Of a DNA stretch of 64,000 nucleotides, positions 3,102-46,619 are shown in pieces; positions within the stretch are counted from its first letter, which is position 1, and the number at the start of each line of letters is the position of its first letter. The notes under the pieces are model-generated. The model saw only the letters and a list, made by a program, of their open reading frames with translations. It ran no database searches and was not told the origin of the DNA. Location of the stretch: positions 22,646 through 86,645 of the forward strand of contig CAMDWG010000010.1 of NCBI GenBank assembly GCA_945878375.1, in the 5' to 3' direction. A program made the position numbers and the translations under genes. This DNA comes from Roseomonas mucosa (lineage in GTDB: Bacteria > Pseudomonadota > Alphaproteobacteria > Acetobacterales > Acetobacteraceae).

Positions 3102-3166
3102 GGGGCCGCCCGACCGGCCCCGGGCTTGCGTCCGGCGGCCGGTTTCGCCAACAGGGAAGGGTCTCC

Positions 3167-4962: not shown

Positions 4963-4976
4963 GGGAGAACCGCGCG

Positions 4977-5039
4977 ATGGCCCGGATCCTGGCCTGCACC
5001 GACGGCTCGATCTACGCCGAGAGCATCGTCGACACATGA
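4977..5039 (+). pseudogene. Truncated universal stress protein (UspA-like) remnant, 20 codons
   Basis: GAGGGAG RBS then MARILACTDGSIYAESIVDT*, resembling the Usp N-terminal ILxxxDGS motif, right after SulP. Confidence 0.6.
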
Positions 5040-5136
5040 CCGGGGCGGTGGCGGTGGCCTGCCACTTTGCACCGCCCCCGCCGCCGCGATAGAACCCACC
5101 CGCTCCCTCCCCCATCCGCCTCCGGAACCGCAGCCA

Positions 5137-6816: not shown

Positions 6817-7060
6817 TGGTGCGATCCATGGAGCCGGTTCCCTGCCCGGCGGCTGCGGACCGCACCACCAGCGCTTTGGCTGGTTGGCCGATCCACGCCG
6901 CTGTCGAGAACCGACAGCGGCGATCGGGCCACTAGGCTGCCATGCAGGGGGCTTGGGTCTCGGCGCGTGGTTTGTGCTCGGCGGCCTCCTTCCTGCGCGT
7001 CCGCGCGCGCGGCATCGCGTGCGACGACAAGGCCCGCCCCGCCATCCGGCTTGAGCCCGC

Positions 7061-7579
7061 ATGACCTCCGCCCTGCACAGCGCCCCGCGCACGCTGACGA
7101 CCGCGCGGCTGTCGCTGCTGCCGCCGGGCCGGGAGCACCTGCCCGACCTGATCCGCCTGAAGGCCGATCAGCGCGTCTTCGGCTTCATGCTGCACGGCAC
7201 CCGCAGCCCCGAGCGCACGAAGGAAGAACTCGAGGACGACATGGAGTTCTGGCTGGTGCGCGGCTACGGCACCTGGAGCGTCTTCGAACGCGCGACGGGC
7301 GAATTCCTCGGCATCTGCGGGCTGATGGAACGCCCCGACGGGCGCGGCGTCGCGCTTCGCTATGCGCTATGGCCGGAATGCCGGGGCAAGGGCTACGCGC
7401 GCGAGGCAGCGCGCGCCACGGTGGACTTCGGCCACCAGGCGGGGCTCAAGCGCATCATCGCGGTGGCGCGCGCCGATAACGGGTCCTCGATCAGCGTGAT
7501 GCACGACATCGGCATGCGCATCTGCGGCGACTTTCGCCATCAGAACCACGAGATGCTGATCTTCGAAAGCCTAAGGTAG
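7061..7579 (+). CDS. GNAT (RimJ/RimL-like) N-acetyltransferase
   Basis: LTTARLSLLP, RGKGYAREAA, NGSSISV motifs. Confidence 0.8.
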   Translation: MTSALHSAPRTLTTARLSLLPPGREHLPDLIRLKADQRVFGFMLHGTRSPERTKEELEDDMEFWLVRGYGTWSVFERATGEFLGICGLMERPDGRGVALRYALWPECRGKGYAREAARATVDFGHQAGLKRIIAVARADNGSSISVMHDIGMRICGDFRHQNHEMLIFESLR

Positions 7580-7640
7580 GCGCGCCGTCCCGGCGCCGAC
7601 GAGTGGAGGACGAGGGTGGGAACCCGTCCTCCGCCGGGCA

Positions 7641-8282
7641 TCAGCCCGCCTCGCGCGCCGCAAGCGTCTGGATCTGCTGGCGCATCGCGGCCAGCAGCGC
7701 GGCCACGTTGCCGCCATTGCGCGAGATGACCGAGGAATACTCGCTGCGCGTGGTCAGCCGCAGGCTCGTCCCTTCCGCGATCACATCCACCACCTTCGGC
7801 TGGCCGCCGACCTCGGCCACCCGCCAATCGAGGCCGAAGGCCGGGTTGCCGGGGCGCTCGACGATGGTGCTGACCAGCGCATCCTCCTCCGTCCGCGCCT
7901 GGGTGCGACCGAGGGAGAAGCGCACACCCTGGTATTCGCCGAAGCGGGCCGAGAGGTTGCGGATCAGCACCTGTTCGAACAGTTGCAGGTATTCCTGCTG
8001 CTGCTCGGCGGTGGCGGTGCGCCACCAGCGGCCGAGGATGAAGCGCCCGACGCCGTCCACATCCACCGCGCGGCGCAAGACCTGCGCCACGCGTTCCCGC
8101 CGCTGGGCGACCGGCGCGTTGGTGGCGTTGATGGCTGTGACGAGTTCCTGGCCGGTGGCCTGGATGAAGGCGGTGGCCCGGGCGATGTCGGTCTGCTGCG
8201 CGCGCGCGGGTGCCGCGACCAGGCCGGTGGCGGCAAAGCCGCCCAGGAACAGCCGGCGGGGGAAGATCGAGGCGGAGGTCAT
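7641..8282 (-). CDS. mlaC: MlaC/Ttg2D phospholipid-binding periplasmic protein
   Basis: Tat-like RRLFL signal; RFILGRWWR and KVVDVIAEGTSL motifs; downstream of mlaA. Confidence 0.85.
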   Translation of the reverse strand: MTSASIFPRRLFLGGFAATGLVAAPARAQQTDIARATAFIQATGQELVTAINATNAPVAQRRERVAQVLRRAVDVDGVGRFILGRWWRTATAEQQQEYLQLFEQVLIRNLSARFGEYQGVRFSLGRTQARTEEDALVSTIVERPGNPAFGLDWRVAEVGGQPKVVDVIAEGTSLRLTTRSEYSSVISRNGGNVAALLAAMRQQIQTLAAREAG

Positions 8283-8308
8283 GCGGGTCCCTATCCCCTG
8301 GGCGGCGG

Positions 8309-9136
8309 TCAGAGGCCGGGGCCTTGCGCGCCGGCCCCGACGCCAAAGCCCGTTCCGCGAGCGGCCGGATCACCGGCGCTCGCGGGGTTTCGTATCTCTG
8401 CCGCGCGCCGCTGGCGATAGGCGCTCCGCAAGCTGGCATAGGGGTCGATGGAGCCGGCCCGCAGCGCGTCCAGCGGCTCGATCAGCCGTTCGCGCGTGTC
8501 CAGCACCTGCACGCCGATGCGGGTGACGGTGATCGGATCGAAGATCTCGCCGCCGGTGATGGCGCTGATCGGATTGGTGACCGCGTCCACCCCGGTGCCC
8601 AGCAGGTCGCGCGGATTGGATGGGCCGAGGCCGGGGATGAAGATGTAGGGCCCTTCCGGAACGCCCCACACCGCCAGCGTCTGGCCGAAATCCTCGCCAT
8701 GGGCCGGCAAGCCGAAATCGGTCGCGACATCCAGGATGCCGCCGACGCCGAGGGTGGTATTCAGCACGAACCGCCCGAGCGTGTTGCCCGCCCGTTGCGT
8801 TTCCCCCTGCAGCACGTCGTTCAGCAGGATCACCGGACTGCGGAGATTGCCGAGCATGTTCTGCACCGCCGTCCGGATCGGAGGGGGAATAAAGATGCGA
8901 TAGGCTTCCGCGGCCGGGCGCAACACCAGCGTATCCAGCCCGTCATTGACAACGAACATGGCCCGGTTCCAGGGCTCGATCGGATCGTTGGTGGCCTCGA
9001 ATTCCGCCACCTCCTCCGGGTCCGAGGGGTCGGGGCGGGTGGCGCAGCCGGCGATGAGCAGGCCGAGCGCGACCAGGGCCGCCAAGCCAGCCGGCCGGGC
9101 ACGGCGATGCGCGCGTGCCAGTGCTTGGCCACGCAT
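8309..9136 (-). CDS. mlaA: MlaA/VacJ lipoprotein
   Basis: Lipobox LIAGC; NDPIEPWNR, EDFGQTLAVWGV, GPSNPRD, DPYASLR motifs. Confidence 0.9.
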   Translation of the reverse strand: MRGQALARAHRRARPAGLAALVALGLLIAGCATRPDPSDPEEVAEFEATNDPIEPWNRAMFVVNDGLDTLVLRPAAEAYRIFIPPPIRTAVQNMLGNLRSPVILLNDVLQGETQRAGNTLGRFVLNTTLGVGGILDVATDFGLPAHGEDFGQTLAVWGVPEGPYIFIPGLGPSNPRDLLGTGVDAVTNPISAITGGEIFDPITVTRIGVQVLDTRERLIEPLDALRAGSIDPYASLRSAYRQRRAAEIRNPASAGDPAARGTGFGVGAGAQGPGL

Positions 9137-9409
9137 AAGCTGCCCGCTCGTCACGTCCCCGTTCGTCACCTGTCCAACCTTCGCTTGTCCGGCCACAAGT
9201 GGGGCCTCTTGGCACCGCTTTCCGGCTGTCGTCCAGTCCTGTCCGGGGCAGACGCGCGCGGGCGAAGCGCCTCGTTGCACCGGCCAGGGTCTTCCGAGGC
9301 CGCCATAGCGCCCTTATATCCGCGGCGATCAAAAACCGGAACGCCATTGGTTGTTGCAGGTGGCCGCGTCCTGCAGTTCTTCGGCGGCGCCGACCAGGAG
9401 AAACCCGAC

Positions 9410-10348
9410 ATGAATATGGCCCTGAGCGGGACGCTGCAGCGCTGGCTGACCGGACCGCGCGTTACCGGCCTGCCGCAGCCGATGGAGTTGCCGGCGCCGA
9501 AGCTGTCCTTCGAGTTCTTTCCCCCGAAGAACGAGGCGCTGGAACAGCAGCTTTGGGCCGCGATCCGCCGGCTGGAGCCGCTGGCACCCCGCTTCGTCTC
9601 CGTCACCTACGGGGCCGGCGGCACGACCCGGACCCGCACGCATGAGACGGTCTCCCGCCTGGCCAAGGAAACCTCGCTCACGCCGGCCGCACACCTGACC
9701 TGCGTCGGCGCGACGCGGGACGAGGTGGATGAGGTCGCGCGCGGCTATCTGGACGCCGGCGTGCGCCACATCGTGGCGCTGCGTGGCGACCCGCCGGCGG
9801 GTGCGAGCGAATACACCCCCCATCCCGGCGGCTATGCCCAGGCCGAGGATCTGGTGCGCGGCCTCCGGAAGATCGCCGATTTCGACATCAGCGTCGGCGC
9901 CTATCCGGAGACGCATCCGGCGGCGACCTCGGCGGCGCTCGACCTCGATTTCCTGAAGCGGAAGATCGATGCGGGGGCCACCCGCGCGATCACCCAGTAC
10001 TTCTTCGACACCGACATCTACCTGCGCTTCCTGGATCGCTGCGCGGCGGCGGGGATCACGGTGCCGATCGTGCCGGGCATCCTGCCGGTGTCCAACTTCA
10101 AGCAGGTGCAGAAATTCAGCGCCATGTGCGGCGCCTCGGTCCCGGCCTGGATGGCGCGGCTGTTCGACGGGCTCGAGGAAGATGCGGAGACGCGCCGCCT
10201 TGTGGCGGCCGTGGTCGCGGCCGAGCAGGTGCGGCTGCTGCAGGCCAATGGCGTGGACGAGTTCCACTTCTACACGCTGAACCGCGCCGACCTGACCTAT
10301 GCGATCGCGCATCTGCTCGGTGTCCGGCCGGGGCAGACGGAGGGCTGA
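9410..10348 (+). CDS. metF: 5,10-methylenetetrahydrofolate reductase
   Basis: SFEFFPPK, SVTYGAGG, AHLTCV, ALRGDPP, ITQYFFD, FHFYTLN motifs. Confidence 0.95.
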   Translation: MNMALSGTLQRWLTGPRVTGLPQPMELPAPKLSFEFFPPKNEALEQQLWAAIRRLEPLAPRFVSVTYGAGGTTRTRTHETVSRLAKETSLTPAAHLTCVGATRDEVDEVARGYLDAGVRHIVALRGDPPAGASEYTPHPGGYAQAEDLVRGLRKIADFDISVGAYPETHPAATSAALDLDFLKRKIDAGATRAITQYFFDTDIYLRFLDRCAAAGITVPIVPGILPVSNFKQVQKFSAMCGASVPAWMARLFDGLEEDAETRRLVAAVVAAEQVRLLQANGVDEFHFYTLNRADLTYAIAHLLGVRPGQTEG

Positions 10349-10362
10349 CGGCAGGATTGGTC

Positions 10363-10478
10363 GGGCCCCCTCCCCAACCCTCCCCCGCAAAGCGGGAGAG
10401 GGAGCAGGTTGCGTCAGCTAGCCCTCTCCCGCGTAGCGGGGGAGGGTGGCTGCGCGCAGCGCAGCTGGGAGGGGGCCC
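10363..10478. repeat. REP/RIME-like palindromic element, copy 1
   Basis: Terminal inverted repeat GGGCCCCCTCCC...GGGAGGGGGCCC; internal hairpins CCCTCCCCCGC/GCGGGAGAGGG; near-identical copy at 33379-33488. Confidence 0.85.
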
Positions 10479-10526
10479 GACCGACCTGACCGGGATGAGA
10501 GCGCGTCATCGCCCCCATCCCACCCG

Positions 10527-10955
10527 TCACCGCATCAGGTTGAACTTGTCGATCAGGAACAGCGTGCCGAACAGCGTGCCCGCGAAGATCAGCAGGTGGT
10601 TGCGGATCGCGTCCTTCCGCCGCACCAGCTCCGGCGGCGGATCCGGCACGGAAGATGCGCCGAGCGCCGCGAGCCCACGCAACTCGGCCGCCGGGGCGGG
10701 CGCGACGGCGGCAACGGCCGCGCTGACCTTGGCGTCGGTCTCGGCCGGGGTCATGCAGGCGCCGAGATAGCCGAAGCGCTGCGCGGCTTCCGCCGGGGCA
10801 AGGCTGGTGCCGTCCCACAACACCCAGTTCCGCAGATGCGGGTTCCAGCCAAGCGGCAGCGGATGCTGGCCGCCATCCTCCTTGCGCGCCACCCAATGCC
10901 AAGGGCGGTTGGTATCGGCGGGCTCGCCGGGGCGCTCGGCATGGGGCCAGGACAT
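10527..10955 (-). CDS. Hypothetical protein with C-terminal hydrophobic anchor
   Basis: 142-aa ORF filling the metF-tyrA gap; Trp-rich N-terminus, hydrophobic LLIFAGTLFGTLFLI tail. Confidence 0.55.
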   Translation of the reverse strand: MSWPHAERPGEPADTNRPWHWVARKEDGGQHPLPLGWNPHLRNWVLWDGTSLAPAEAAQRFGYLGACMTPAETDAKVSAAVAAVAPAPAAELRGLAALGASSVPDPPPELVRRKDAIRNHLLIFAGTLFGTLFLIDKFNLMR

Positions 10956-11042
10956 CGGGCGGTTCTCTGTCGGTGGTGTCGGGGCGGAGCCTAGATCAGG
11001 CTCCGGTCGGGTGGAACCGCAAAGCCGGTCGGCCCGGTCGCG

Positions 11043-11960
11043 CTACGCCTGGTGTCGGTCGATCAGGTTCTGGCGGATCTTCCGGCCACGCCTGATCCGG
11101 TCCTCGATATACTCCGCCTGCCCCCAGCGCACCGCGCGGCCCAACGCCTGTGCGTCCTCGGTGAAGCGCGCCAGCATCTCCAGCAGCGCCTCGCGGTTGT
11201 TCAGGAACACGTCGCGCCACATGGTCGGATCGCTGGCGGCGATGCGGGTGAAGTCGCGGAAGCCGCCGGCGGCGAATTTCAGCACGGCTTCCTTCGTCTC
11301 CTCCGCCAGATCATCCGCCGTCGAGCAGATGGTGAAGGCGATCAGATGCGGCAGGTGGGATACGATGGCGACGATCTTGTCATGCGTCGCCGGGTCCAGC
11401 GCTTCCACCATGCTGCCGCAGCGGCGCCAGAACTCCTTCACCGCCTCCACTGCGGCGGGGTCGGAGCCCGGCAGGGGGGTCAGCATGCAGTACCGCCCCT
11501 CGAACAGCGTGGCGAAGCCCGCATCGGGGCCGGAATACTCGGTGCCCGCCATCGGATGCGCCGGCACCAGATGCACGCCAGGGGGCACCAGCGGGCCCAG
11601 GTCGCGCACCACGCTGCTCTTGGTGGAACCGACATCGGTGATGATGGCGCCCGGCTTCAGATGCGGGGCGACCGTTTTCATCAACTCGGCATAGGCGCCG
11701 ACGGGGACACAGAAGACGACGCAATCCGCGCCCTGCACCGCCTTGGCCGGATCCGCTTCCACCACATCGGCGATGCCGAGTTCGCGGACGCGGTCCAGCG
11801 TCCGCGGCGTCTTCGCATGCGCGACGATGGTGCGCGCGATGTCGCCGCGTTCCCGCGCCACCCGCGCGATGGACGACCCGATCAGCCCGACGCCGAGCAG
11901 GCAGAGCCGGTCGAACAGCGGGGCCGCGCCGGGGGCCTGGGGCGTCCCGCTATCCGGCAC
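11043..11960 (-). CDS. tyrA: Prephenate/arogenate (cyclohexadienyl) dehydrogenase
   Basis: [24 protein letters not shown]...[19 protein letters not shown] motifs. Confidence 0.93.
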
Positions 11961-22313: not shown

Positions 22314-22400
22314 TACCGCTCGCCTATTCCCGCGAGCGTTACCGCTCGACTGTCTCCGCGAGCGTTACCGCTCGCTCGTATCCGCGAGCGTTACCGCTCG
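22314..22400. repeat. Tandem array of 19-nt hairpin repeats, period 26
   Basis: CCGCGAGCGTTACCGCTCG at 22330, 22356 and 22382 plus a partial unit ending 22322; 7-nt variable linkers. Confidence 0.9.
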
Positions 22401-23563
22401 ACGCACATCGCAACCCCCATGCCGCCCCCGATGCACAGCGTGGCGAGGCCCCGCTTCGCGCCGCGGCGCTGCATCTCGTACAGCAGCGTCGTCAGCACCC
22501 GCGCGCCCGATGCGCCGATCGGATGGCCCAGCGCGATCGCGCCGCCATTGACGTTCACCTTCGCCGGATCCCAGCCCAGGTCCTTGTTCACCGCGCAGGC
22601 CTGCGCGGCGAAGGCCTCGTTCGCCTCGATCAGGTCCAGGCTGTCCAGGCTCCAGCCCGCCTTCTGCAGCGCCTTGCGGCTGGCCGGGATCGGGCCCGTG
22701 CCCATGATGGCGGGATCGACGCCCGCCGTGGCCCAGGACACGATCCGCGCCAGCGGGGCGATGCCGCGCTTCGCGGCTTCCGCCGCGCTCATCACCACCG
22801 CGGCGGCCGCGCCGTCATTGATGCCCGACGCATTGCCGGCCGTCACCGTGCCGTCCTTGGCGAAGGCCGGGCGCAGCTTCTGCAGCACGTCGAAGGTGGT
22901 CTCGGGCTTCGGATACTCGTCGTTCTCGACCACCACGTCGCCCTTGCGGCCCTTCACGGTGACAGGCGCGATCTCGTCGCGGAAGCGGCCAGCCTTCATC
23001 GCTTCCCCGGCCTTGCGCTGGCTTTCGGCGGCGAAGCGGTCCTGCTCCTCCCGCGTCAGCTGGAACTTCTGGGCCACGTTCTCGGCCGTGTTGCCCATGT
23101 GATAGCCGTGGAAGGCGTCCCACAGCCCGTCCTTCAGCATCGTATCGATGAATTCGAGGCTGCCCATCTTCTGGCCCGCGCGGAGGTTCGCGCAATGCGG
23201 CGACTGGGTCATGCTCTCCTGCCCGCCGGCGACCACGATCGCCGCATCGCCGGTGGCGATCTGCTGCGCCGCGAGCGCCACGGCGCGCAGGCCGGACCCG
23301 CAGAGCTGGTTGATGCCGAAGGCGGTCCGCTCGGCGGGGATGCCGGCGGCCATCGCGGCCTGGCGGGCCGGGTTCTGGCCGGCGCCGGCCGTCAGGATCT
23401 GGCCGAGGATCACCTCATCCACCTCATCCGGCGTCACGCCTGCGCGGGCGAGGGCGGCCTGGATCGCGACCTGGCCGAGCGCATGCGCGGGCATGGAGGA
23501 AAAGGCGCCGCTGAAGGATCCGACAGGGGTTCGCGCGGCAGAGGCGATGACGATCTCGGTCAT
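22391..23563 (-). CDS. phbA: Acetyl-CoA C-acetyltransferase (beta-ketothiolase)
   Basis: [38 protein letters not shown] motifs. Confidence 0.95.
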
Positions 23564-23639
23564 GTCGTGTCTTCCCTTCCTCGGGCTGTCGCTGGGGATG
23601 TCAGGCTTGGGCCAGCACTTTGGTGCGGTGCGGGGCCAT

Positions 23640-24887
23640 CTACAAGCCGCGCAACCATGACAGCAACGGGCGCCACAGGGCGGCCTCGGCGCCGGTCCCG
23701 GCCACCATGCCGATATGGCCGGCGGCGGCCTCGTGCAGCACCGCGCCGGGCGGCAGCCGGGAGGCCAGGGCGCGGGCCGAGGCAGGGGGGACGATCCGGT
23801 CGCGGTGGGGGATGGCCAGGAAGGCCGGGACCGCCAGCGCCGCCGGGTCCATGACGGCGCCGGCGACGCGCCACGCCAGGCGGGCGGTGGTATTGGCCCC
23901 GTACCAGCCGCCCAGCGTCTCTCGCGCCACGGGCGCGGCCAGCGGGACGCCATCGTTCAGCCAATCCTCCAGCGCCACGAACAGCGCCGCACGCGAAGAC
24001 GCCGGGTCGAGCCGCGCGAAGGCGCGGAATTTCTGCGGGATGCCCCAGGGGTCGAGCCCGGCGAACAGCGCCTGGATAAAATCCACGGGAAGGGTGCCGG
24101 TGGCCCCCATCGCGGGCTCCAGCCCCGGCAGCAGCGCGGCCGCGGCGGCGGCGCGGGTCGCGTCCCCTGGCGTTGCGTGGAAATCCCACGGCGTCGCCAG
24201 CAGCCCAAGCGCGGCCACCCGGTCCGGGCGGCGCAGGGCGGCAGCCAGGGCCAGCAGACCTCCCATACAATAGCCCACCAGCACCACGGGCCCCGGCTGC
24301 GCCGCCAGCATCCTCTCCAGCCGCCCGGCGATGTAGTCGGTCAGGGTGAAGCCGCGTTCGGCCTCCCCGGGCCAGCCCCAGTCGAGCAGCCTGGCGCGCA
24401 CTCCCTGCCCGGCCAGGTGGCGCAGCAGGGAACGCCCCTCCATCAGGTCCAGCACCTGGGCGCGGTTCACCAGGGACGGGACGAAGACCACCGCCGGCCC
24501 CGTGGCGTCGCCCCGTGCGTAATCCAGCAGCCGCGTCTCGCCCTCCGCCCAGATCGCGGGCGGGTCGGGCAGGTCGCGCTCGAAGGGATGGCGGCGATAG
24601 GCGGCGATGCCGGCCAGCAAGGCGCGATCCTCGCGCAGCAGGCGCCGCAGCACGGCGGCGCGGAAGGCCTCAGCCGCGTGGCCGCCTTCGGCGAGGCGCC
24701 CTCGGATCCGGAGCAGCTCCGCGCGGCCGTCCTTCGAGATCGGCCAGGCGTCGCTCCAGCTCGGCCAGCCTTCCGCGAAGGGCGGCATCGGCATCAGCCC
24801 CGCCATCGCGAGCATCCCGCGCCCCGCCCCCAGCATCAGGTGCATCGGCAGCGGGCGCGGGCCGCGGCGACGGAGCGGCGCCGTCAT
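23640..24887 (-). CDS. PhaC-like alpha/beta hydrolase (PHA synthase-type Cys nucleophile)
   Basis: VPSLVNR, GYCMGG lipase-like box with Cys, DRIVPP Asp, GHIGM His; located in the PHB cluster. Confidence 0.75.
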
Positions 24888-25119
24888 CGGCGGGCCGTGC
24901 CGCTGGCCAGGGGGCGGGCGGGCGGCCGAAGGGCGGGGCGGCGGCCGCGCGCAGCCAGGCCGCGCCCAGCGCCGCCCAGGCCGAGGTGGCGGCGGACCAG
25001 GCCTCGGCGGCCTCCCGGTCGGCGGCCAGGGCCGCGATCTCGCTCTGCCAGAGCGTGATCCAGTCCTCGGCGAGGCGCTCGACCTCCTCCTGCTCGGCTT
25101 TCGGCCGATCCGCGTCCAT
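24670..25119 (-). CDS. Hypothetical protein with C-terminal coiled coil, overlapping the PhaC-like gene
   Basis: LAEDWITLWQSEIAALAADRE and [16 protein letters not shown] helices. Confidence 0.6.
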   Translation of the reverse strand: MDADRPKAEQEEVERLAEDWITLWQSEIAALAADREAAEAWSAATSAWAALGAAWLRAAAAPPFGRPPAPWPAARPADDGAAPSPRPAPAADAPDAGGGARDARDGGADADAALRGRLAELERRLADLEGRPRGAAPDPRAPRRRRPRG

Positions 25120-25281
25120 CCAGGCTCCCCTGCCGGTCACGGCCCGGAACCGCTGCCGGCGTCCATCGCCGCCTTGGTTCCAGTCCCGCCAGACCTGCCG
25201 CATCGCGTATTTCGCAGTGCATCGCGACCCATGATAGCATCATCCTGGAAGCGGCGGCACGGCCGCGCGGAAGGCGATCGC

Positions 25282-25893
25282 ATGTCACAGGACACCACGC
25301 TCCCCCCGGATGATGCAGCAGAGGCCCCGGTCGGCCCCCCTGTCGTCGTGAAGAAATACGCGAACCGGCGACTCTACAACACGGAATCCTCGTCCTACGT
25401 CACGCTCGAAGACCTGGCCGGGATGGTGCGGCAGGGCCGCGACTTCGTGGTCTATGACGCCAAGTCGGGGGATGACATCACCCGATCGGTGCTGACCCAG
25501 ATCATCGTCGAGGAAGAAGCGAAGGGGCGGAGCCTGCTGCCGACCTCCTTCCTCCGGCAGATCATCGGCTTCTATGGCGACAGCATGCAGTCGCTGGTGC
25601 CGCGTTATCTTGAGAATGTGATGGGCGCCTTTTCCCGCCAGCAGGTCCAGGTGCGCCGCGCGGTGGAGCAGACGATGGGCGGCTTCAACCCCTTCGGCGG
25701 GCTCGAGGAGATGGGCAAGCAGAACATGGCGATGATGGAACGCGCCATGACGCTGTTCGCCCCCTTCCGCACCGGGGCCGAGCCGCCCGAGGCCGCCGGC
25801 GACGCCGCCCGCATCGCCGCGCTGCAGGCCGAGGTGGACCGGCTGAGGCGGCAGGTTGAGATGCTGCAGGGCGGCCGGCGGGGCGAAGGCTAG
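25282..25893 (+). CDS. phaR: PHA synthesis repressor PhaR/AniA
   Basis: VVKKYANRRLYNTESSSYVTL, DITRSVLTQII, LRQIIGFYG motifs. Confidence 0.95.
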   Translation: MSQDTTLPPDDAAEAPVGPPVVVKKYANRRLYNTESSSYVTLEDLAGMVRQGRDFVVYDAKSGDDITRSVLTQIIVEEEAKGRSLLPTSFLRQIIGFYGDSMQSLVPRYLENVMGAFSRQQVQVRRAVEQTMGGFNPFGGLEEMGKQNMAMMERAMTLFAPFRTGAEPPEAAGDAARIAALQAEVDRLRRQVEMLQGGRRGEG

Positions 25894-25907: not shown

Positions 25908-26327
25908 TCAACCCGCCTCGGTCGCCCAGGCGATCCCGGCTTCCGCCAGCGTCGCTTCCAGCAGCGCGCGATCCATTCGCGCATGGCGTTCCAGCAGCCG
26001 CAGATAGGCCGCGACGAAGGCCGGCCCGTGGCCCGCATGGCTGCCATCCACCTCCGCCGTCAGGGCATGCGCGATTTCATGCAGCAGGACCCAGGAGGGG
26101 AGTTCGGCCGGCGCCTCGATGGCGGTGCGGCTGGCCCGCGCCACGATGCGCCTTGCCTGTTTCGGCAAGGGCCGGATGCGCGGCGGCCAGCGCCGGCCTT
26201 CCGCCGCCCAGACATGATCGACCAGCGCCTGCAGCCGCGCGAAGGGCACCAGGCTGCGGTCGCGGGGCGCGACCACCGCGTCCTCCCACGCATAGAGCCG
26301 GATCGCCGCGCGGTCGTGGCGGCTCAT
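25908..26327 (-). CDS. HExxH zinc metallohydrolase (Rv0185/TIGR04338-like)
   Basis: VLLHEIAHAL...HGPAFV; start overlaps the upstream stop (ATGA). Confidence 0.75.
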   Translation of the reverse strand: MSRHDRAAIRLYAWEDAVVAPRDRSLVPFARLQALVDHVWAAEGRRWPPRIRPLPKQARRIVARASRTAIEAPAELPSWVLLHEIAHALTAEVDGSHAGHGPAFVAAYLRLLERHARMDRALLEATLAEAGIAWATEAG

Positions 26328-27079
26328 CTGCGCGGCAGGCGGCCCGCGGCCGGGCCGGCGCCGACCGGGCGATCCAGCCCGACGCGCCCGCCGGCCTCCC
26401 GCCCCCGTCCATAGGCGCCCTTGTCGCGCACCACGGTGCTGCGCGTGACGGTCCGCAGCCGCACGCCGAGCGCGCGGAAGCCGTCCTCGATCTTGCGTTC
26501 CTTCAGCAGCACCAGCGCCGTGCCGCCGGCACCGGCACCGGCGCGCGCCGCCTGGTCCCGCGCCGCCTGTTCGCTGGCGCGGCGGTGGCTGCCGAGTTCG
26601 CCCAGCCGCGTCGCCAGGCGGTCGGCGAAGCCGATCCGAAAACTGCGGAGCACCGCCTGCGGCGCGGCCCGCGCGCCCAGGTAATCGGGGCTGCGGCGGA
26701 AGCGCGATTCCTCATGGTGCAGGGCGGTCGCGATCATATGCATCAGGTATTCCGCCATCTGCACATCCGGCTCCAGGCCGAAGATCACATAATCGGCCCG
26801 CCCCACGGTCCAGCCGCGGCAGTCGGTGAAGCGCAGCAGTGCCGGGAACAGCCAGCCCATCGCCTGCCGGCGCGGATCGTCGAACACCATCACGCGCTGC
26901 ACGCAGGCTTCCTCGCGCAGATCGACCTCTGACATCGAGAGGCCGTAGACCTCCAGCAGCTCGCCCACCTTGGCGGCGGCGGCCATGGCCTCCGCCTCGG
27001 AACAGCCGCGCTCCACGGTGCGTGAGGCCAGCGCGCGGATGCGCGCCTTCACCTTCGCCAGCTCGTCCTTCTGATCCAT
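26324..27079 (-). CDS. DUF2786-domain protein
   Basis: KVKARIRALASRT...SEAEAMAAAAKVGELL..YGL N-terminus; SFRIGFADRL. Confidence 0.8.
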   Translation of the reverse strand: MDQKDELAKVKARIRALASRTVERGCSEAEAMAAAAKVGELLEVYGLSMSEVDLREEACVQRVMVFDDPRRQAMGWLFPALLRFTDCRGWTVGRADYVIFGLEPDVQMAEYLMHMIATALHHEESRFRRSPDYLGARAAPQAVLRSFRIGFADRLATRLGELGSHRRASEQAARDQAARAGAGAGGTALVLLKERKIEDGFRALGVRLRTVTRSTVVRDKGAYGRGREAGGRVGLDRPVGAGPAAGRLPRR

Positions 27080-27152
27080 CTGCCGCGCCCGGAGGGGTTT
27101 CGCCGCCCTATACCATCGCCGGCCGAGGCCTGCGCCAGCCCCGGCTTGCCGC

Positions 27153-28862
27153 ATGCGCGCCACGATCGGCGTTCATGCATCTGATGTGACCGACGAGAAC
27201 ATCCCCCTGCGGCGCGGCCTGTTCGGCGGGCTGGTCGCGGCCATCGCGCTGATCCTGCTCTGGCTCGCCTGGCGCGCTTTGGCGCCGGGCGGGGTGAACG
27301 TGGCAGAGGCGCTGATTCTGGCCTGCCTGCTGCTGGTGACGCCCTGGGCGGCGCTGTCGGCGGGCAATTCGCTGGTCGGGCTGGCCATCCTGCTGGCCTC
27401 GCGCGATCCGCCGGGCGCGGTGCTGCCCGCGCTGCGCCAGGCGCGCCCCGGCCCGCCCCGGCAGCTCACCGCACTCGCCGTCTGCATCCGCAACGAGGAG
27501 ATGGGGGCCGTGTTGCCGCCGCTCGGCGCGCTGCTGGATGGGCTGGCGGCGCGGGGAGCTGCGGATCGCTTCGTGCTGTGGCTGCTGTCGGACACCCAGG
27601 AACCCGCCATCGCGGCGGCGGAGGAGGCCGCGATCCGCGCCTTCGCCGCCGGTCGCACCGAGGGCCCCGCCATCCGCTATCGCCGCCGCGCGGCGAATGA
27701 CGGCTTCAAGGCCGGCAACGTGATGGATTTTCTGGACCATCACGCCGGGGACGCCGCATTCTTCATCACCCTCGATGCCGACAGCGTGATGACGCCGGAT
27801 GCCGTGCTGCGCCTGGTCGCGGTCATGGAAGCGGATCCGGGCCTTGCCATCGTGCAGCAGCTGATCGTCGGGCGGCCCGCCACGGCGGCCTTCCCACGGC
27901 TGTTCCAGTTCGGCATGCGCGCAGCCATGCGGAGCTGGGCCACGGGGCAGGCCTGGTGGCAGGGCGATGCCGGCCCCTATTGGGGCCACAACGCGATCCT
28001 CCGCTGCGAGCCCTTCCGCCGCCATGCGCGGCTGGAAGCGCTGCCCGATGGCAGCCGCATCCTGTCCCACGACATGGTCGAAAGCGTCCGCCTGCAAGCC
28101 GCCGGCTGGCGCGTGCGCTGCCTGCCGGCGGAGGATGGCAGCCTGGAAGCCAACCCGCCCGCCATGCCGGAATTCCTCCGCCGCGACGAACGCTGGGGCG
28201 CGGGCAACATGCAGTATTTCCATCTGCTGCGCCTGCCCAACTTCACGCCGATGGGCCGGCTGCAATTGGTGCAGGCGATCCTGCTGTTCCTGGGCGCGCC
28301 GCTCTATGCGCTGATCCTGCTGCTGGCCGCGCTGAACGGGATTGCGGGCGGCGGCGCGGACACGCCGATGGGCGCGCTGGCGCTGGCCATCCTCGCGCAT
28401 TGGCTCTGCTACTTCTCCCCGAAGCTCTCGGGCTATGCGCAGGCGCTGATCCAGGGCCGCGTCGCCGCACAGTACGGCGGCCGCGCGGCCTTCGCGAAGG
28501 GCACGGCGACGGAGATCGCCTTCATGCAGCTGTTCGAGCCGCTGTCGACGCTGAACAAGGCGATGTTCCTCGCCACGCTGCCGTTCGGCCGCCGCACGGG
28601 CTGGGCGCCGCAGAACCGCGCCGATCGCGGCATCGCCTGGGCCGATGCGGCGCGGCTGCTGTGGCCGCACATGCTGGCCGGCGTGGCGTTGACGTTCTGC
28701 TTCGCGCTGGTCTCGCCGACAGCGTTGCTGCTGGCCTTGCCCTTCACGCTCGGCATGGTCTTCGCCATCCCGCTCTGCGTCTGGAGCGCCGATCCTGGCG
28801 TCTCAGCCCGGCTGCGCGCGCACCGCATCGCCGCGACGCCGGAGGAACTTGGTGCGCGCTGA
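27153..28862 (+). CDS. mdoH: Glucan biosynthesis glucosyltransferase OpgH/MdoH
   Basis: LSDT, GFKAGN, LDADSVM, YWGHNAI, LSHDMVE, RDERWGAGN motifs. Confidence 0.88.
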   Translation: MRATIGVHASDVTDENIPLRRGLFGGLVAAIALILLWLAWRALAPGGVNVAEALILACLLLVTPWAALSAGNSLVGLAILLASRDPPGAVLPALRQARPGPPRQLTALAVCIRNEEMGAVLPPLGALLDGLAARGAADRFVLWLLSDTQEPAIAAAEEAAIRAFAAGRTEGPAIRYRRRAANDGFKAGNVMDFLDHHAGDAAFFITLDADSVMTPDAVLRLVAVMEADPGLAIVQQLIVGRPATAAFPRLFQFGMRAAMRSWATGQAWWQGDAGPYWGHNAILRCEPFRRHARLEALPDGSRILSHDMVESVRLQAAGWRVRCLPAEDGSLEANPPAMPEFLRRDERWGAGNMQYFHLLRLPNFTPMGRLQLVQAILLFLGAPLYALILLLAALNGIAGGGADTPMGALALAILAHWLCYFSPKLSGYAQALIQGRVAAQYGGRAAFAKGTATEIAFMQLFEPLSTLNKAMFLATLPFGRRTGWAPQNRADRGIAWADAARLLWPHMLAGVALTFCFALVSPTALLLALPFTLGMVFAIPLCVWSADPGVSARLRAHRIAATPEELGAR

Positions 28863-29016: not shown

Positions 29017-30219
29017 TCAGACGTCCAGCATCAGCCGGCGCGGATCCTCGATGGCGTCCTTCATCCGCACCAGGAAGCTCACCGCTTCCTTCCCGTCCAC
29101 GATGCGGTGGTCGTAGCTGAGCGCGAGATACATCATCGGGCGGATTTCCACCTTCCCGCCCACCGCCATCGGACGTTCCTGGATCTTGTGCATGCCCAGG
29201 ATGCCGGACTGCGGCGGGTTCAGGATCGGGGTGGACATCAGCGACCCATAGATGCCGCCATTGGTGATGGTGAAGCTGCCGCCGGTCAGTTCCTCGAGCT
29301 TCAGCGCGCCGTCACGGGCGCGGCGGCCGAAATCGCCGATGGCCTTCTCGATCTGCGCGAAACCCAGCTGGTCAGCGTTCCGCAGCACCGGCACCACCAG
29401 CCCGCTCGGCCCGCCGACGGCGATGCCCATATGGACGAAATTCTTGTAGATGATCTCGTCGCCGTCGATCTCCGCGTTCACCGCGGGGAATTCCTTCAGC
29501 GCGGCGACGGCGGCCTTCACGAAGAAGCTCATGAAGCCCAGTTTTTGGCCATGCCGCTTCTCGAACGCATCCTTGTACTCGGCGCGCAGCCCCATCACGG
29601 CGCCCATATCCACCTCGTTGAAGGTGGTGAGCATCGCGGCGGTGTTCTGCGCTTCCTTCAGGCGGCGCGCGATGGTCTGGCGCAGGCGGGTCATCTTCAC
29701 CCGCTCCTCCCCGCCTTCCAGCGGGCGGGCGGAAGCCTTGGCGGCCGGGGCGGCAGCGGCAGCGGCGGGCTTCGCGAGGAAGGCCTGCACATCGCCCTTG
29801 GTCACGCGGCCATCCTTGCCGCTGCCCGCGCCGATCTGCGCAGGCGTCACGCCGGCATCGGCCATCGCCTTGGTCGCGGCGGGGCCATTCGGCAGGGCGG
29901 CGGCGGGCGCCTTGGCCGGCGCCTCGGCGGCCGGCGCGGGCTTCGCGGCGGGGGCAGGCGCGGCGGCGGGCTTCGCCGCGCCCGTACCGGCGGCGATGGT
30001 GCCGAGCACGGCGCCGGCGGTCACTTCCGCACCTTCCTGCGCGGCGATCGATTCGATCACGCCGGCGGCAGGCGCGTTGACCTCCACCGTCACCTTGTCC
30101 GTCTCAAGCTCCACCAGCGGCTCATCCGCCGCCACGGCCTCGCCGGCCTTCTTCAGCCAGCGCGCCACGGTGGCGCTGGAGACGCTTTCCCCCAGCGGGG
30201 GCACGATGATCCCGGTCAT
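29017..30219 (-). CDS. sucB: 2-oxoglutarate dehydrogenase E2
   Basis: Lipoyl [30 protein letters not shown] motifs. Confidence 0.95.
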
Positions 30220-30254
30220 CTTGGTTCCGTCCTGATGCCTCATCCACGACGCGC

Positions 30255-33149
30255 TCAGCCGAGGCCGAGCGCGTCCCGGACGAGGGCCTCCTGCTGCTGC
30301 TGATGGATCTTGGCGAGGCCCGTGGCCGGGCTCGCCGCTTCGATGCGGCCGACATAGCGCGGCCGCTTGGCGTGGATGTCGATCTCGCCCAGCACGCCTT
30401 CGATGCGGCGGTCGAGGAAGGTCCAGGCGCCCATATTCTCGGGCTCCTCCTGGCACCACACCACCTCGGCGTTCTTGTAGGGCGCGAGCGCCTTGCCGAG
30501 GCTGGTCTTCGGGAAGGGATAGAGCTGCTCGACACGCACGATGGCGACATCGGTGATGCCCTTGTCGCGGCGTTCCTGCAGCAGGTCGTAATAGACCTTG
30601 CCGGTGCAGAGCACGACGCGTTTCACCTTCTCGGGCGGGGCGATCGCATCCACTTCGGGGATCACGTACTGGAAGGCGCTGCCAGGCGCGAAATCCGCCA
30701 GCGCAGAGACCGCCAGCTTGTGGCGCAGCAGCGACTTCGGCGTCATCAGCACCAGCGGCTTGCGGTAATTCGCCTTCATCTGGCGGCGCAGCGCGTGGAA
30801 GTAGTTCGCCGGCGTGGTCAGGTTGCCGACGCGCATGTTCCGCTCCGCGCAAAGCTGCAGGTAGCGTTCGAGGCGCGCCGAGGAATGCTCCGGCCCCTGG
30901 CCTTCATAGCCATGCGGCAGCAGCATCACGAGGCCGGACATCCGCAGCCACTTCGTCTCGGCGGAGGCGATGAACTGGTCGATGATGACCTGCGCGCCGT
31001 TCGCGAAATCGCCGAACTGGGCTTCCCACAGCACCAGCGTGCGCGGATCCGCCAGGCTGTAGCCGTATTCGAAGCCGAGGACGCCGAATTCCGACAGCAG
31101 GGAATTGAAGGCCTCGAAGCGCGGCTGGCCGGCACGGATGTTGTTCATCGGCACGTATTCCGCCTGGGTGGCCTGGTCCACCAGATAGGCGTGGCGATGG
31201 CTGAAGGTGCCGCGCTGCACATCCTCGCCCGATAGCCGCACGCGATGGCCTTCCAGCAGCAGGGAGCCGAAGGCCAGCGCCTCACCGGTCGCCCAGTCCA
31301 CGCCCTCCCCGGTCTCGATCGCCTGCTTCTTGGCTTCGAGCTGGCGCGCGATCTTCGGGTTGACGTTGAAATCCGCAGGCACCCGCGTCAGCGCCGCGCC
31401 CACTTCGCGCAGCGTGTCGAGGCCGCTGGCGGTCTCGTGCAGGCGTTCCACTTCCTCGCCGGTCGTGACCGCCTTTAGGCCGGACCAGTGGCCTTCCAGC
31501 CAATCCGCCTTGTTCGGCTTGAAGGACGCCGCGGCCTGGAAGGCGTCTTCCAGCGTGGCGTAGAAGGCGTCGAGCATCGCCTTCGACTCCTCGGCCGAGA
31601 GCGCTCCCTCGGCCGCCAGCTTCTCGGCGTATTTGGTGCGGGTGGTCTTGGTTTCCTTGATCCGGCCGTACATCAGCGGCTGGGTGAAGGCGGGCTCGTC
31701 GGTCTCATTATGGCCGTGGCGGCGGTAGCAGACGATGTCGAGCACGATATCCGCGCCGAATTCCATGCGGAATTCCGCTGCCATCGTCGCGCAGAAGACC
31801 ACCGCTTCCGGGTCGTCGCCATTCACATGCAGGATCGGCACCTGGATGCTTTTCGCCACATCCGTGCAGTACAGGCCCGAATAGGCGTGCAGCGGGACGG
31901 TGGTGAAGCCGATCTGGTTGTTGGTGACGATGTGGATCGTGCCGCCCGTGCGGTAGCCGACCAGCTGGCTCATCGCCAGCGTCTCATACACCACGCCCTG
32001 GCCGGCGAAGGCGGCATCGCCATGCAGCGTGATGGCCATGACGGAGCGGCGGCCCTTGGTGTCGCCCGCCATGTCCTGCCGCGCGCGGACCTTGCCGACC
32101 ACGACCGGGTCCACCGCTTCCAGATGCGAGGGGTTCGGCTGCAACGAGAGGTGCACCATGCGCCCGGCGATCTCGATGTCGGTCGAGGTGCCGAGATGGT
32201 ACTTCACGTCGCCCGAGCCCTGGACGTCCTCAGGATGCGCGGAGGTGCCCTTGAACTCCGAGAAGACGGCCGAGTAGGGCTTCTTCACCACATTCACCAG
32301 CACGTTCAGGCGCCCACGATGCGCCATGCCGATGGTGACTTCGTTCACGCCCTGCGCGGCCGCAGTCGCGATCACGGTCTGGATCGCGGGGATGGTGCTT
32401 TCGCCGCCTTCCAGGCCGAAGCGCTTGGTGGTGGCGTATTTCTTCGCGCAGAAGGCCTCGAAGCCCTCGGCCTCGGTCAGCTCCTGCAGGATGTGCTTCT
32501 TCTGGCCCTTGTCGAAGGAACCCAGCCAGGGCGCGCCTTCGATCCGGCGCTGGATCCAGGACTTCTGGTCCGGGTCCTGGATATGCATGAACTCGACGCC
32601 GATGGACGCGCAGTAGGAGGCGCGGCAGATGGCCAGGATCTCGCGCAGCGTCGCGAATTCCTTGCCGAGCACGAAGTCGAGGAAGATCGGCCGGTCCATG
32701 TCGGCTTCGGTGAAGCCGTAGGTCGCGGGCGTCAGTTCCGCATGCGGCTTCGGCTTCTGCAGGCCCAGCGGGTCGAGCTGCGCTTCCAGGTGGCCGCGGA
32801 CGCGGTAGCTGCGGATCAGCATCAGCGCGCGGATCGAATCGAGCACCGCGCGCTGCGCGGCCGCCTTGTCCATGGTGGGCGCGGCGGGAGCGGCGGCGGC
32901 CTTGTCATCCTTCTTCGGCGCGGGCGCCGGTTCGGGATCGGGGCCGAAGCGGCCGCGGGTGCGCGGCGCCCAGGACGCGCCGGAGGCATCCGTCAGCACC
33001 GACCGCGCTTCGTCGTTCAGCGCCTCGAACAGCTCCGCGAAGGAGGCATCGACGCTGTCGGGCTTCTCCACCCAGCGGGCATAGAGATCCGCGAGGAAGG
33101 CGGCATTCGCCCCCGACATCACGCTGGCGAGGATATCCACTCCGGCCAT
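30255..33149 (-). CDS. sucA: 2-oxoglutarate dehydrogenase E1
   Basis: [35 protein letters not shown] motifs. Confidence 0.97.
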
Positions 33150-33378
33150 CTTGTCCTCCTCGACGGCGCCGGCCTGGGCGCCGCCGGTTTCCCCAACCTG
33201 GTCGTCCCGGACCGTTGTCCCGGTTACGCAACCGTCCCCGGTGGGGGACGGTTCGCCAATCAGCATAAGCCGAACTGGTCCATCCTGGCAGACCCCCCGA
33301 CCCTTGGGCCTAAAGGTCCGGGATACACCCTTCCGGACGCATAACGGGCGAGTGCCCCGCTGGCACGGCCAGTCGTGT

Positions 33379-33488
33379 CCCCTCCCCAACCCTCCCCCGC
33401 TACGCGGGAGAGGGAGCCAGTCGCACCGGACGATCCCTCTCCCGCGTAGCGGGGGAGGGTGGCTGAGCGCAGCGAAGCCGGGAGGGGG
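33379..33488. repeat. REP/RIME-like palindromic element, copy 2
   Basis: Near-identical to 10363-10478 apart from the central ~15 nt. Confidence 0.85.
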
Positions 33489-37549: not shown

Positions 37550-38722
37550 TCAGGGCAGGTGGTCCCGCGCGCGCCAATCCCGGCTTTGCATCTCATGCAG
37601 GCGGGATGCAGTGCGGGCGAACATCGCCGCGTTCTCCCCGCGTTCGTAGATGTTGTCCGGGCTGGCGGCGGCGCTGGCGACCAGCTTCACCCGATGCTCG
37701 TACAGCGCATCCACCAGCGTGATGAAGCGCTTCGCGCGGTCGAAATTCTCCGTGCCGAGCCGGGGGATGCCATCCAGCAGCAACGTGTGGAAATGCGTCG
37801 CCACCGCCAGGTAGTCCGCCGGGCCCAGCGGCTTGCCGCACAGATCCTCGAAGTCGCAACGGGCGACGCCGTCGGCGGCCTGCGGCACCTCGATCGCGCG
37901 GCCGAGCAGGGTGAGGCGCGTGGGGTGGCCATGGTCCTGGCCCGTCAACTCGCGGAAGGCCTGGTCCATAGCCGCGTCGGCACGGCCGCCGAGCGGCATG
38001 TGCCAGGTCGGCATCTCCACGATGCGGGCGCGGCGGTAGTCGCGCGCGCTGTCCAGCACCAGCACGTTCAGCCGGCGCTTGATCAGCCCGATGAAGGGCA
38101 GGAAGGCGTCGCGGCCGGGGCGACCCTTGAACAGGTCGTCGGGCGTGGTGTTGCTGGTGGCCACCACCACCGTCCCGCGCGCGAACAGCGCCTGGAACAG
38201 CCGGCCGAGGATCATCGCGTCCGCGATGTCATGCACCTGGAATTCGTCGAAGCAGAGCAGCGCGGCCTCCGCGGCGATGGAATCGGCCAGCGGGGGGATG
38301 GGATCGGCGGTGTCGCCATGCTGGCGCTTCCAGGCATGGATGCGCGCATGGACGCGGTGCTGCATGAATTCGTGGAAGTGGATGCGTTGCTTGCGCGGGA
38401 CCTCGGCGGTGGCGAAGAACAGGTCCATCAGCATCGATTTGCCCCGGCCGACCTCGCCGACCAGGTAGAGGCCCATCGGCGCGCCAGCCGGCGCTTCCTC
38501 GGGCGCCACCGGCTTGCGGCGGAGGAAGCGGGCGAAGAAGCCGCCCTGCTCGGGCTGTTCCGGATGCGGGTCGTAGCCGCGGGTGCGGCGCCACAGATCC
38601 TGCAGCACCTCCGCCGCCCGACCCTGCGCGGGGTCGGCGTGCAGCGTGCCGGCGACGAGCATGGCGCGGTAGGCGGGCAGCGGGCCTTCATTGGGCGCCG
38701 CCTCTTTGGGCGGGGAATCCAT
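37550..38722 (-). CDS. zapE: Cell division ATPase ZapE (AFG1 family)
   Basis: GEVGRGKSMLMD, LCFDEF, TSN, RFITLVD, RTASRL motifs; upstream of mdh as usual. Confidence 0.92.
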   Translation of the reverse strand: MDSPPKEAAPNEGPLPAYRAMLVAGTLHADPAQGRAAEVLQDLWRRTRGYDPHPEQPEQGGFFARFLRRKPVAPEEAPAGAPMGLYLVGEVGRGKSMLMDLFFATAEVPRKQRIHFHEFMQHRVHARIHAWKRQHGDTADPIPPLADSIAAEAALLCFDEFQVHDIADAMILGRLFQALFARGTVVVATSNTTPDDLFKGRPGRDAFLPFIGLIKRRLNVLVLDSARDYRRARIVEMPTWHMPLGGRADAAMDQAFRELTGQDHGHPTRLTLLGRAIEVPQAADGVARCDFEDLCGKPLGPADYLAVATHFHTLLLDGIPRLGTENFDRAKRFITLVDALYEHRVKLVASAAASPDNIYERGENAAMFARTASRLHEMQSRDWRARDHLP

Positions 38723-46464: not shown

Positions 46465-46619
46465 GACAGCCGCGATGCCAGGGTAACGCGAGATCTGAGC
46501 GAACGAAGCCGGAACGTCAATCCATCGCCGGGCGCGTCAGCCGCACGGCAGGAATCGGAAGGGGGGCGCCCGCCCCCCTTCATGCCGCCCGCTCGTCGCA
46601 CGGCAAGCGGCCGCTGGTC

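Follow-up and report, generated by a model that had tools for sequence, protein, structure and literature searches.

Two small overlapping genes on the minus strand of a 64,000-nucleotide (nt) stretch of Roseomonas mucosa DNA (contig CAMDWG010000010.1; hereafter the window) raise the question of whether they encode a single system and what that system does. We call them gene A and gene B. An earlier note, made from the letters alone, had likened them to the mycobacterial pair Rv0184-Rv0185. The reading we favor, with a probability of roughly 45%, is that they encode a two-part enzyme in which B is a SprT-like metalloprotease working only with A as its nucleic-acid-binding adaptor or activator. 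Open reading frame (ORF) analysis and translation confirmed both genes in the window, A first and B second, with the following parts (aa, amino acids):

26324..27079, minus strand: gene A, 251 aa, a basic partner protein with DUF2786, DUF7168 and a conserved basic C-terminal region (translation, Pfam, phrog_421)
25908..26327, minus strand: gene B, 139 aa, a predicted SprT-like zincin assigned to a sister family of TIGR04338 (translation, profile scores, hhalign, AlphaFold model)
26324..26327, minus strand: ATGA overlap of the A stop codon and the B start codon (direct sequence reading)
26933..27055, minus strand: DUF2786 helical hairpin of gene A, residues 9-49 (Pfam; AlphaFold helices H3-18 and H28-44)
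26546..26878, minus strand: DUF7168 core of gene A, residues 68-178 (Pfam; AlphaFold model)
26366..26533, minus strand: conserved basic C-terminal region of gene A, residues 183-238, GTALVLLK ... AG.RV.L.RP (alignments)
26280..26321, minus strand: N-terminal signature of gene B, RHDRAAIRLYAWED (invariant columns of the B-family alignment)
26028..26081, minus strand: predicted metal site of gene B, H83-E84-x-x-H87 plus H100, HEIAHALTAEVDGSHAGH (invariant in 45 homologues)
27080..27152, no strand: divergent intergenic region of 73 base pairs between gene A and a glycosyltransferase gene, the presumed promoter region (sequence reading)

Direct reading of the sequence found the ATGA overlap that the earlier note had reported, as well as all of the motifs it had quoted for gene B: RLYAWED (residues 10-16), LVDHV and HEIAHAL...GHGPAF. 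The translation of gene A opens with MDQKDELAKVK from the ATG at 27079. A longer ORF beginning at the GTG at 27163 was rejected because all homologues begin at the equivalent methionine. A single operon is the best explanation for genes A and B, and their adjacency is far above chance since more than 90 independent loci show the two in this order.

A survey of gene neighborhoods showed that the two genes co-occur in other genomes almost without exception. Within the genus, B is present in 23 of 24 genomes and A lies upstream on the same strand at every genus locus examined. B was found in 28 of 150 sampled genomes of the family Acetobacteraceae, with A upstream in all 17 loci that had enough flanking sequence. 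A scan of named genomes, queried with a close Acetobacteraceae alignment, returned 80 B loci, all but one of them assignable to the Acetobacteraceae from their names or affiliations (Falsiroseomonas, Roseomonas, Belnapia, Siccirubricoccus, Caldovatus, Crenalkalicoccus, Craurococcus, Roseicella, Neoroseomonas, Pseudoroseomonas, Muricoccus and others). Of the 78 named loci with room for it, 76 have a same-strand gene A ahead of B, and in these 76 the distance from the A stop codon to the aligned B start is mostly 0-30 nt. Such tight junctions, together with the ATGA overlap, support a two-part enzyme.

Some Acetobacteraceae carry two or three copies of B, namely the metagenome-assembled genome CBDAQJ01, Roseomonas aerilata and R. 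nepalensis. Two of the three copies in CBDAQJ01 have no recognizable A upstream and are the only unpaired cases among the 78 loci. An Acetobacteraceae-type pair (64% identity) also appears in NZ_JAUYTT010000019.1, a metagenome-assembled genome labelled Frigidibacter sp. (a Rhodobacterales name), which would reflect either a mis-binned contig or a transfer.

The closest relatives outside the Acetobacteraceae sit in large phages, a circumstance that the earlier note had missed. On long metagenome contigs, each of six distant B homologues (31-56% identity) directly follows a DUF2786/DUF7168 gene of 240-285 aa, in several cases with a 4-nt gene overlap. Some of these contigs are plainly phage: one of 207 kb carries T4 gp15 and the large terminase, and in another the pair is accompanied by genes for ribonucleotide reductase, thymidylate synthase and DHFR. 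Others (88 and 208 kb) contain long runs of small ORFs. Viral contig scans with single protein queries returned nothing, and an alignment query was needed for matches; IMG/VR then yielded 42 loci with B-like genes, the closest 11 of which, including T4-like and jumbo phages, all have A upstream. One 194-kb viral contig has two B-like genes in tandem (extracted locus 2986-4108) with no A, which fits the published remark that jumbo phages carry one to three copies of SprT-like peptidases.

The pairing is strict but one-sided, B depending on A and not A on B, because A-type genes are common without B and B of the paired clade is almost never found without A. A tree of B sequences places every A-linked one in a single clade (support 85), in which an Acetobacteraceae subclade (support 88) stands beside phage and metagenome sequences. 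DUF7168 genes are present in 16 of 401 Pseudomonadota genomes, and B adjoins one of them only in the genome studied here; outside the Acetobacteraceae, a sample of 400 alphaproteobacterial genomes yielded B in only one. In isolated phages, Roseobacter phage CRP-738 among them, A occurs with no B, and A-type proteins (phrog_421) are common without B in phages and prophages. Where the two are paired, their distance matrices are strongly correlated (Mantel r 0.92; 0.69 among phage and metagenome pairs). This correlated divergence and the strict linkage lend indirect support to a possible two-subunit complex, and the constant position of A upstream of B in Acetobacteraceae, metagenome and viral loci likewise argues for a two-part enzyme.

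A different architecture of the A-type domains was also observed. Proteins of 535-590 aa carry C-terminal DUF2786 and DUF7168 domains behind an N-terminal region of about 300 aa that has neither a Pfam match nor an HExxH motif; one of them is encoded on Methylocystis rosea pGW6_1 (extracted locus 4086-5693), between integrase and toxin-antitoxin genes near repC. A Pfam scan of three such long proteins found no SprT-like domain. HExxH is likewise absent from every long DUF2786-bearing ORF in a sample of 400 Pseudomonadota genomes, and this sample yielded no fusion of SprT with DUF2786, which weighs against our favored reading.

We then considered what the gene B sequence says about its activity. 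A profile search of 1.8 billion representative proteins returned 993 relatives at E<=1e-3 and 230 at E<=1e-10, mostly of about 140 aa. Across 45 diverse members of the family, the invariant residues are Y12, E15, W40, H83, E84, H87 and H100, and the family signature consists of an N-terminal RDxQxxxVYxWE helix, the HExxH motif and a third histidine 13 residues on in GHGPxF. Gene B thus combines HExxH with a downstream histidine as the predicted third metal ligand, which is the SprT-like combination, and since this histidine is followed by GP.F the protein shows the ligand pattern of SprT-like zincins. The Pfam SprT-like model (PF10263) covers residues 73-111 of gene B (24.5 bits against a threshold of 25.6; E 2.6e-5) and matches 25 of the 45 relatives (E up to 0.01). 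Several close homologues carry a precomputed PF10263 match, and some orthologues are named 'SprT-like domain-containing protein' in RefSeq. The AlphaFold model of gene B (predicted local distance difference test score, pLDDT, 88) superposes on uncharacterized phage zincins labelled IrrE-N-like or SprT-like, with TM-scores up to about 0.75. The invariant predicted catalytic residues, the SprT-like third ligand and the phage zincin fold match favor the assignment of B as the catalytic half of a two-part enzyme and suggest that it would act as a protease. Searches of gene B and its 45 relatives against PHROG found no family, though B-family genes occur in viral contigs, and a search of PDB sequences with the B profile returned nothing significant.

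The partner protein is, as the earlier note had proposed, a DUF2786 protein, and it contains a second domain as well. By hidden Markov model score, gene A exceeds the Pfam gathering thresholds for both DUF2786 (PF10979; 35.4 bits versus 23.9; E 1e-8; profile positions 1-40 of 40) and DUF7168 (PF23771; 63.8 bits versus 25.5; E 1.7e-17; residues 68-178). It also matches phrog_421 over its full length (E 2.2e-25; residues 6-241 against profile positions 5-232 of 241), a family of phage proteins of unknown function; a literature text match for phrog_421 was rejected because it actually concerned phrog_4219. The protein has a computed isoelectric point (pI) of 10.1 and a net charge of about +11, with about +14 in residues 131-251. 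Proteins of the A family are basic in GC-rich bacteria and AT-rich phages alike (median pI 9.7, about +10), and their charge is concentrated in the conserved C-terminal third. Alignments show that this basic C-terminal region is kept from Acetobacteraceae to phage homologues and is recognizable in actinobacterial partners.

The AlphaFold model of gene A (pLDDT 83) runs from the N-terminal helical hairpin through a beta-alpha-beta-beta-alpha core and a 40-residue helix to C-terminal helices, and ends in a low-confidence tail (pLDDT below 50 from residue 239) with a conserved NL.RP motif. Foldseek comparison of the core with PDB structures repeatedly returned KH domains (Krr1, KHNYN, BICC1, Nova and PNPase; probabilities up to 0.97), a likeness of the predicted fold that we treat as a hint only because the E-values are non-significant. 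A PDB sequence search with gene A gave nothing significant, and we found no catalytic motif in the protein. The lack of a catalytic motif, the basic charge at any genome GC and the KH-domain fold matches are consistent with a nucleic-acid-binding partner for B.

How far the likeness to mycobacteria goes was answered by comparing families. Relaxed tblastn of gene B against plasmids listed, directly after the B family itself, RefSeq proteins named 'TIGR04338 family metallohydrolase' from M. avium pS2b, Nocardia, Tsukamurella and M. fortuitum. All four of these records have a 'DUF2786 domain-containing protein' upstream on the same strand, adjacent to or overlapping the TIGR04338 gene in three and separated from it by two genes in the fourth, so the actinobacterial pair named in the earlier note does exist. 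The DUF2786 partners in these records also have the DUF2786 plus DUF7168 composition in Pfam. In profile-profile comparison (hhalign), the B family aligns with the four TIGR04338 proteins at 98.7% probability (E 4e-16, 127 columns), the alignment spanning both the N-terminal motif and the metal site, and the A family aligns with the actinobacterial partners at 97.4% probability (E 9.5e-12, 190 columns). These alignments confirm, at the level of sequence profiles, that both genes are homologous to the actinobacterial pair across phyla, and the likeness drawn in the earlier note is real for that reason.

Membership of gene B in TIGR04338 is a different matter, and here a correction is needed. 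Gene B scores 22.9 bits against NCBIfam TIGR04338 (HEXXH_Rv0185), for which the curated cut-off is 90, and the model aligns only around HExxH (residues 78-114 against profile positions 109-142). The same model matches 39 of the 45 B relatives, none near the cut-off (best E 2e-9), and ten relatives scanned individually gave 18-25 bits with only the catalytic core aligned. Judged by the curated score, gene B is therefore best placed in a sister family of TIGR04338 and not within it. Gene order and strand agree between the two pairs, the stop codon of the first gene often overlapping the start codon of the second, and both zincins have the N-terminal RDxQxxxVYxxE motif, HExxH and the HGPxF segment. 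They differ in that gene B is about 30 residues shorter and lacks an insert after the first helix, and in that the hosts of the actinobacterial pair are Actinomycetota whereas the B family is found in Acetobacteraceae and phages.

The identity of Rv0184 as the DUF2786 partner of Rv0185 has indirect support from the model name HEXXH_Rv0185, from the annotation of M. smegmatis MSMEG_0222 as DUF2786 (PMC10433963) and from a report listing TIGR04338 as a core gene of the giant linear plasmids of M. avium (PMC12803027). A mention of Rv0185 in a paper on mitomycin C was set aside as irrelevant, as it actually concerns Rv0185A, a metallothionein. The homology between the two pairs, with both genes in our lineage under purifying selection (dN/dS, the ratio of nonsynonymous to synonymous substitution rates, 0.14-0.5; gene A 0.17-0.5, gene B 0.14-0.43), further supports a functional two-part enzyme.

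In some other replicons the gene context points toward DNA. On the Lichenicola cladoniae plasmid NZ_CP053710.1 (extracted locus 5819-11305), a same-strand block consists of MucR, gene A, gene B, an RNase_T-type exonuclease overlapping B, HU and a DEAD/DEAH helicase. CcdA and an ISNCY transposase are encoded close by, and the strain has the block on two of its megaplasmids (NZ_CP053710.1 and NZ_CP053709.1). The Lichenicola exonuclease, HU and helicase, the nucleotide-synthesis genes of the phage contig and the linear plasmids of M. avium together favor the view that the two-part enzyme acts in a DNA-related setting.

We therefore propose the following working model. Catalysis would fall to gene B, a minimal zinc metalloprotease of the SprT-like type, in which H83, H87 and H100 would bind the metal and E84 would serve as general base. 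Gene A would be a non-catalytic, strongly basic helical protein made of the DUF2786 hairpin, the DUF7168 core and the basic tail, which B may need either as a scaffold bringing it to nucleic-acid-bound targets or as an activator. The task of the module would most likely be the proteolysis of proteins on or stuck to DNA or RNA. The module is probably old, and mobile elements, among them large phages and actinobacterial megaplasmids, may carry it about. On separate occasions it would have settled as a stable chromosomal pair in the Roseomonas/Falsiroseomonas group (Acetobacteraceae) and in Mycobacteriales, there as the Rv0184/Rv0185 type.

Several observations weigh against this model. The SprT-like match of gene B is sub-threshold, about 1 bit short, and the PDB fold search with its model gave no significant neighbor, the best being minigluzincin at E 0.4. 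The KH matches of the gene A core have Foldseek E-values of 0.07-1.4. About 30 more distant B-like genes in IMG/VR stand alone or encode longer proteins, without A, and the zincin fold can thus function alone. The chromosomal neighbors in the window (phaR and the glycosyltransferase) say nothing about DNA, and there is no LexA box or other damage-response signal upstream of gene A. Searches of the literature on DUF2786, DUF7168, TIGR04338 and Rv0184/Rv0185 turned up only incidental mentions and no experiment on any member.

The upstream region was scanned for regulatory signals. The alphaproteobacterial LexA box (GTTC-N7-GTTC) is absent near 25.9-27.2 kb and upstream of the pair in 29 relatives, so SOS (LexA) regulation was rejected at this locus. 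Elsewhere in the window three exact matches occur (37631-37645, 46501-46515 and 63609-63623) against 0.69 expected, a number reached in none of 100 shuffles, and these may mark SOS genes. A scan of the locus for consensus sigma-70 promoters and terminators found nothing. Five genus relatives with differing upstream genes share a CTGTCAATCGC-like element upstream of gene A, at varying distance from a -10-like GCTAGAG/GCTATGC that itself lies about 8-12 nt before the ATG, near enough that the transcript may be leaderless in these relatives. Family-level relatives show CTTGACC instead of the CTGTCAATCGC-like element, and the window itself lacks it.

One actinobacterial locus carries a motif reminiscent of a damage promoter. 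In Tsukamurella tyrosinosolvens NZ_LR134465.1, the DUF2786 gene start is preceded, at a distance of 8 nt, by TGTCGGT-N9-TATTCT (extracted locus 712-733), which resembles the mycobacterial RecA-independent (PafBC-type) damage promoter; nothing comparable was seen at our locus. The pattern gave 7 matches in 213 loci, about the chance level, and only the Tsukamurella match is well placed; we regard it as a lead and not as evidence because the pattern frequency is near chance. The same record has two extra genes between the DUF2786 and TIGR04338 genes, near rplJ, rplL and rpoB, and although labelled a plasmid it looks like a piece of chromosome because these three genes adjoin the pair.

The two-part enzyme invites comparison with known DNA-dependent proteases. 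Gene B resembles the SprT-like zincins (PF10263: E. coli SprT and Spartan/SPRTN; the related Wss1) in its HExxH motif, the third histidine shortly downstream, a G-x-x-F type segment and a small alpha/beta zincin fold. It differs from them in scoring below the Pfam threshold, in matching no solved Spartan structure significantly, whether by sequence or by fold, and in its N-terminal YxWE helix, which is specific to the B family and TIGR04338. Spartan needs DNA-binding modules to act, and any such function would here sit in a separate polypeptide. ArdC is alike in working principle only, as a mobile-element zincin coupled to a nucleic-acid-binding part; it is one polypeptide, with a single-stranded-DNA-binding domain fused to the zincin, whereas here there are two genes, and a Pfam scan matched neither protein to ArdC domains. 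Jumbo phages carry either SprT-like or ArdC-like peptidases (PMC7824862). In a bolder form of our reading, the pair would be a split, two-polypeptide counterpart of Spartan and ArdC, in which a KH-like A binds single-stranded or damaged nucleic acid and switches on B, and which originated on large phages and megaplasmids and was independently domesticated for core genome maintenance in Roseomonas-group Acetobacteraceae and in mycobacteria (Rv0184/Rv0185). So specific a version we consider unlikely.

Alternatively, B could act on A itself. ImmA cleaves ImmR, IrrE/PprI cleaves DdrO and CapP cleaves CapH, and by analogy B would cleave A upon a signal, with A as the effector or regulator and B as the conditional processing or inactivating enzyme. 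We consider such a protease-substrate switch possible, if somewhat unlikely. The one-sided dependence, with A often alone and paired-clade B almost never so, fits an accessory enzyme that acts on A, and the conserved low-confidence tail of A with its NL.RP motif could be a cleavage or recognition site. The pair also shares with ImmA/IrrE (M78) and CapP a small HExxH protease gene beside, and often overlapping, its partner gene, as well as a common occurrence on phages and mobile elements and a weak structural resemblance: PprI and CapP are among the lower, weak PDB fold matches of gene B, its best viral structural match is named IrrE N-terminal-like, and one of the 45 B relatives matches Peptidase_M78 (PF06114, E 6.6e-4). 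Gene B itself, however, has no match to PF06114, and its third ligand is the SprT-like histidine 13 residues on instead of the distant glutamate of M78/IrrE. Nor does A resemble the partners in those systems, since a Pfam scan found in it no XRE-type helix-turn-helix or other recognized repressor domain, and the region upstream of the pair showed neither operator-like repeats nor damage boxes.

The setting of the pair on the chromosome bears on a further alternative. The neighboring genes are as follows:

25282..25893, plus strand: phaR, the usual conserved neighbor, outside the module (Pfam PHB_acc_N and PHB_acc)
27153..28862, plus strand: family-2 glycosyltransferase gene, the mdoH of the earlier note, outside the module (Pfam Glyco_trans_2_3)

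Both flanks are as the earlier note had described them. phaR is convergent with gene B, with 14 nt between the end of PhaR and the B stop codon, and the glycosyltransferase gene is divergent from gene A, starting 73 nt away. The note's proposal that the pair was inserted between these two genes did not hold. GC content across the pair is 0.71-0.75, equal to that of the flanks, and PhaR adjoins the pair in most genus relatives. The glycosyltransferase, in contrast, had no match beside the pair in the 11 genus loci examined and was seen there only in this genome. Insertion or horizontal transfer in the window was rejected because of the native GC, the presence of the pair throughout the genus, purifying selection and the usual phaR linkage. 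The pair is an old, vertically inherited and compositionally native gene pair in this lineage, and the rearrangement occurred on its upstream, glycosyltransferase side. Beyond the immediate flanks, positions 22391-25893 form a polyhydroxyalkanoate gene neighborhood, with a thiolase (acetyl-CoA acetyltransferase; 22391-23566, minus strand) and an alpha/beta-hydrolase that may be PhaC-like (23640-24887, minus strand) ahead of PhaR. At 29017-33389, two long minus-strand ORFs read from their translations as 2-oxoglutarate dehydrogenase E2, the lipoyl-bearing dihydrolipoamide succinyltransferase, and E1.

Such a setting fits poorly with a conflict module, in which the pair would be a phage or plasmid weapon or counter-weapon, an anti-defense protease, or a defense or toxin-antitoxin-like pair with A restraining B. 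The presence of the module in T4-like and jumbo phage contigs and on actinobacterial megaplasmids would suit this role, as would the A-type genes of Lichenicola and Methylocystis plasmids, which have toxin-antitoxin and transposase genes close by, and the proposal of Iyer et al. (2021, PMC7824862) that host proteins are the targets of the patchily distributed SprT-like peptidases of T4-like jumbo phages. In the Acetobacteraceae, however, the pair is single-copy, vertically inherited, set among housekeeping genes and conserved in nearly all genus genomes, without the turnover of a defense island, and it is equally stable on the chromosome-like actinobacterial DNA beside rplJ and rplL. Neither protein matched any defense model in PADLOC-DB 2.0 (E up to 0.1). 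We judge a conflict role quite unlikely. Very unlikely is the remaining alternative, that B is a zinc hydrolase other than a protease (perhaps an amidase or a nuclease-like enzyme, with a small molecule or nucleic-acid adduct as its substrate) and A a structural phage-derived protein linked to it by co-expression only: the NCBI name of the related family is metallohydrolase and not peptidase, and the protease-family matches of gene B are sub-threshold or weak, but HExxH with a nearby third histidine on this fold is the peptidase site in characterized families (SprT/Spartan, Wss1 and ArdC), and strict linkage across three very different kinds of replicon with co-varying divergence points to something beyond shared expression.

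Taken together, the actinobacterial DUF2786 plus TIGR04338 pair, which includes M. tuberculosis Rv0185 and is functionally uncharacterized, has here a sister family organized as the same two-gene unit, now seen in large phages and in a lineage of Proteobacteria from soil and water. The strict one-sided pairing allows the module to be defined precisely and narrows the question to whether gene A is an adaptor or a substrate, and it leaves a choice of hosts amenable to genetics (Roseomonas or Falsiroseomonas isolates, or M. smegmatis). The pair is less surprising than it is well suited to experiment, and if it proves not to be a guided protease it would be an ordinary conserved gene pair already named by domain in public annotation. 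Should it turn out to be a protease guided by nucleic acid, it would be relevant to the ways in which bacteria and phages strip proteins that are bound or crosslinked to DNA. To our knowledge, few candidates are known for the removal of DNA-protein crosslinks in bacteria, and a split counterpart of Spartan and ArdC would be a dedicated bacterial enzyme against such crosslinks or DNA-bound proteins.

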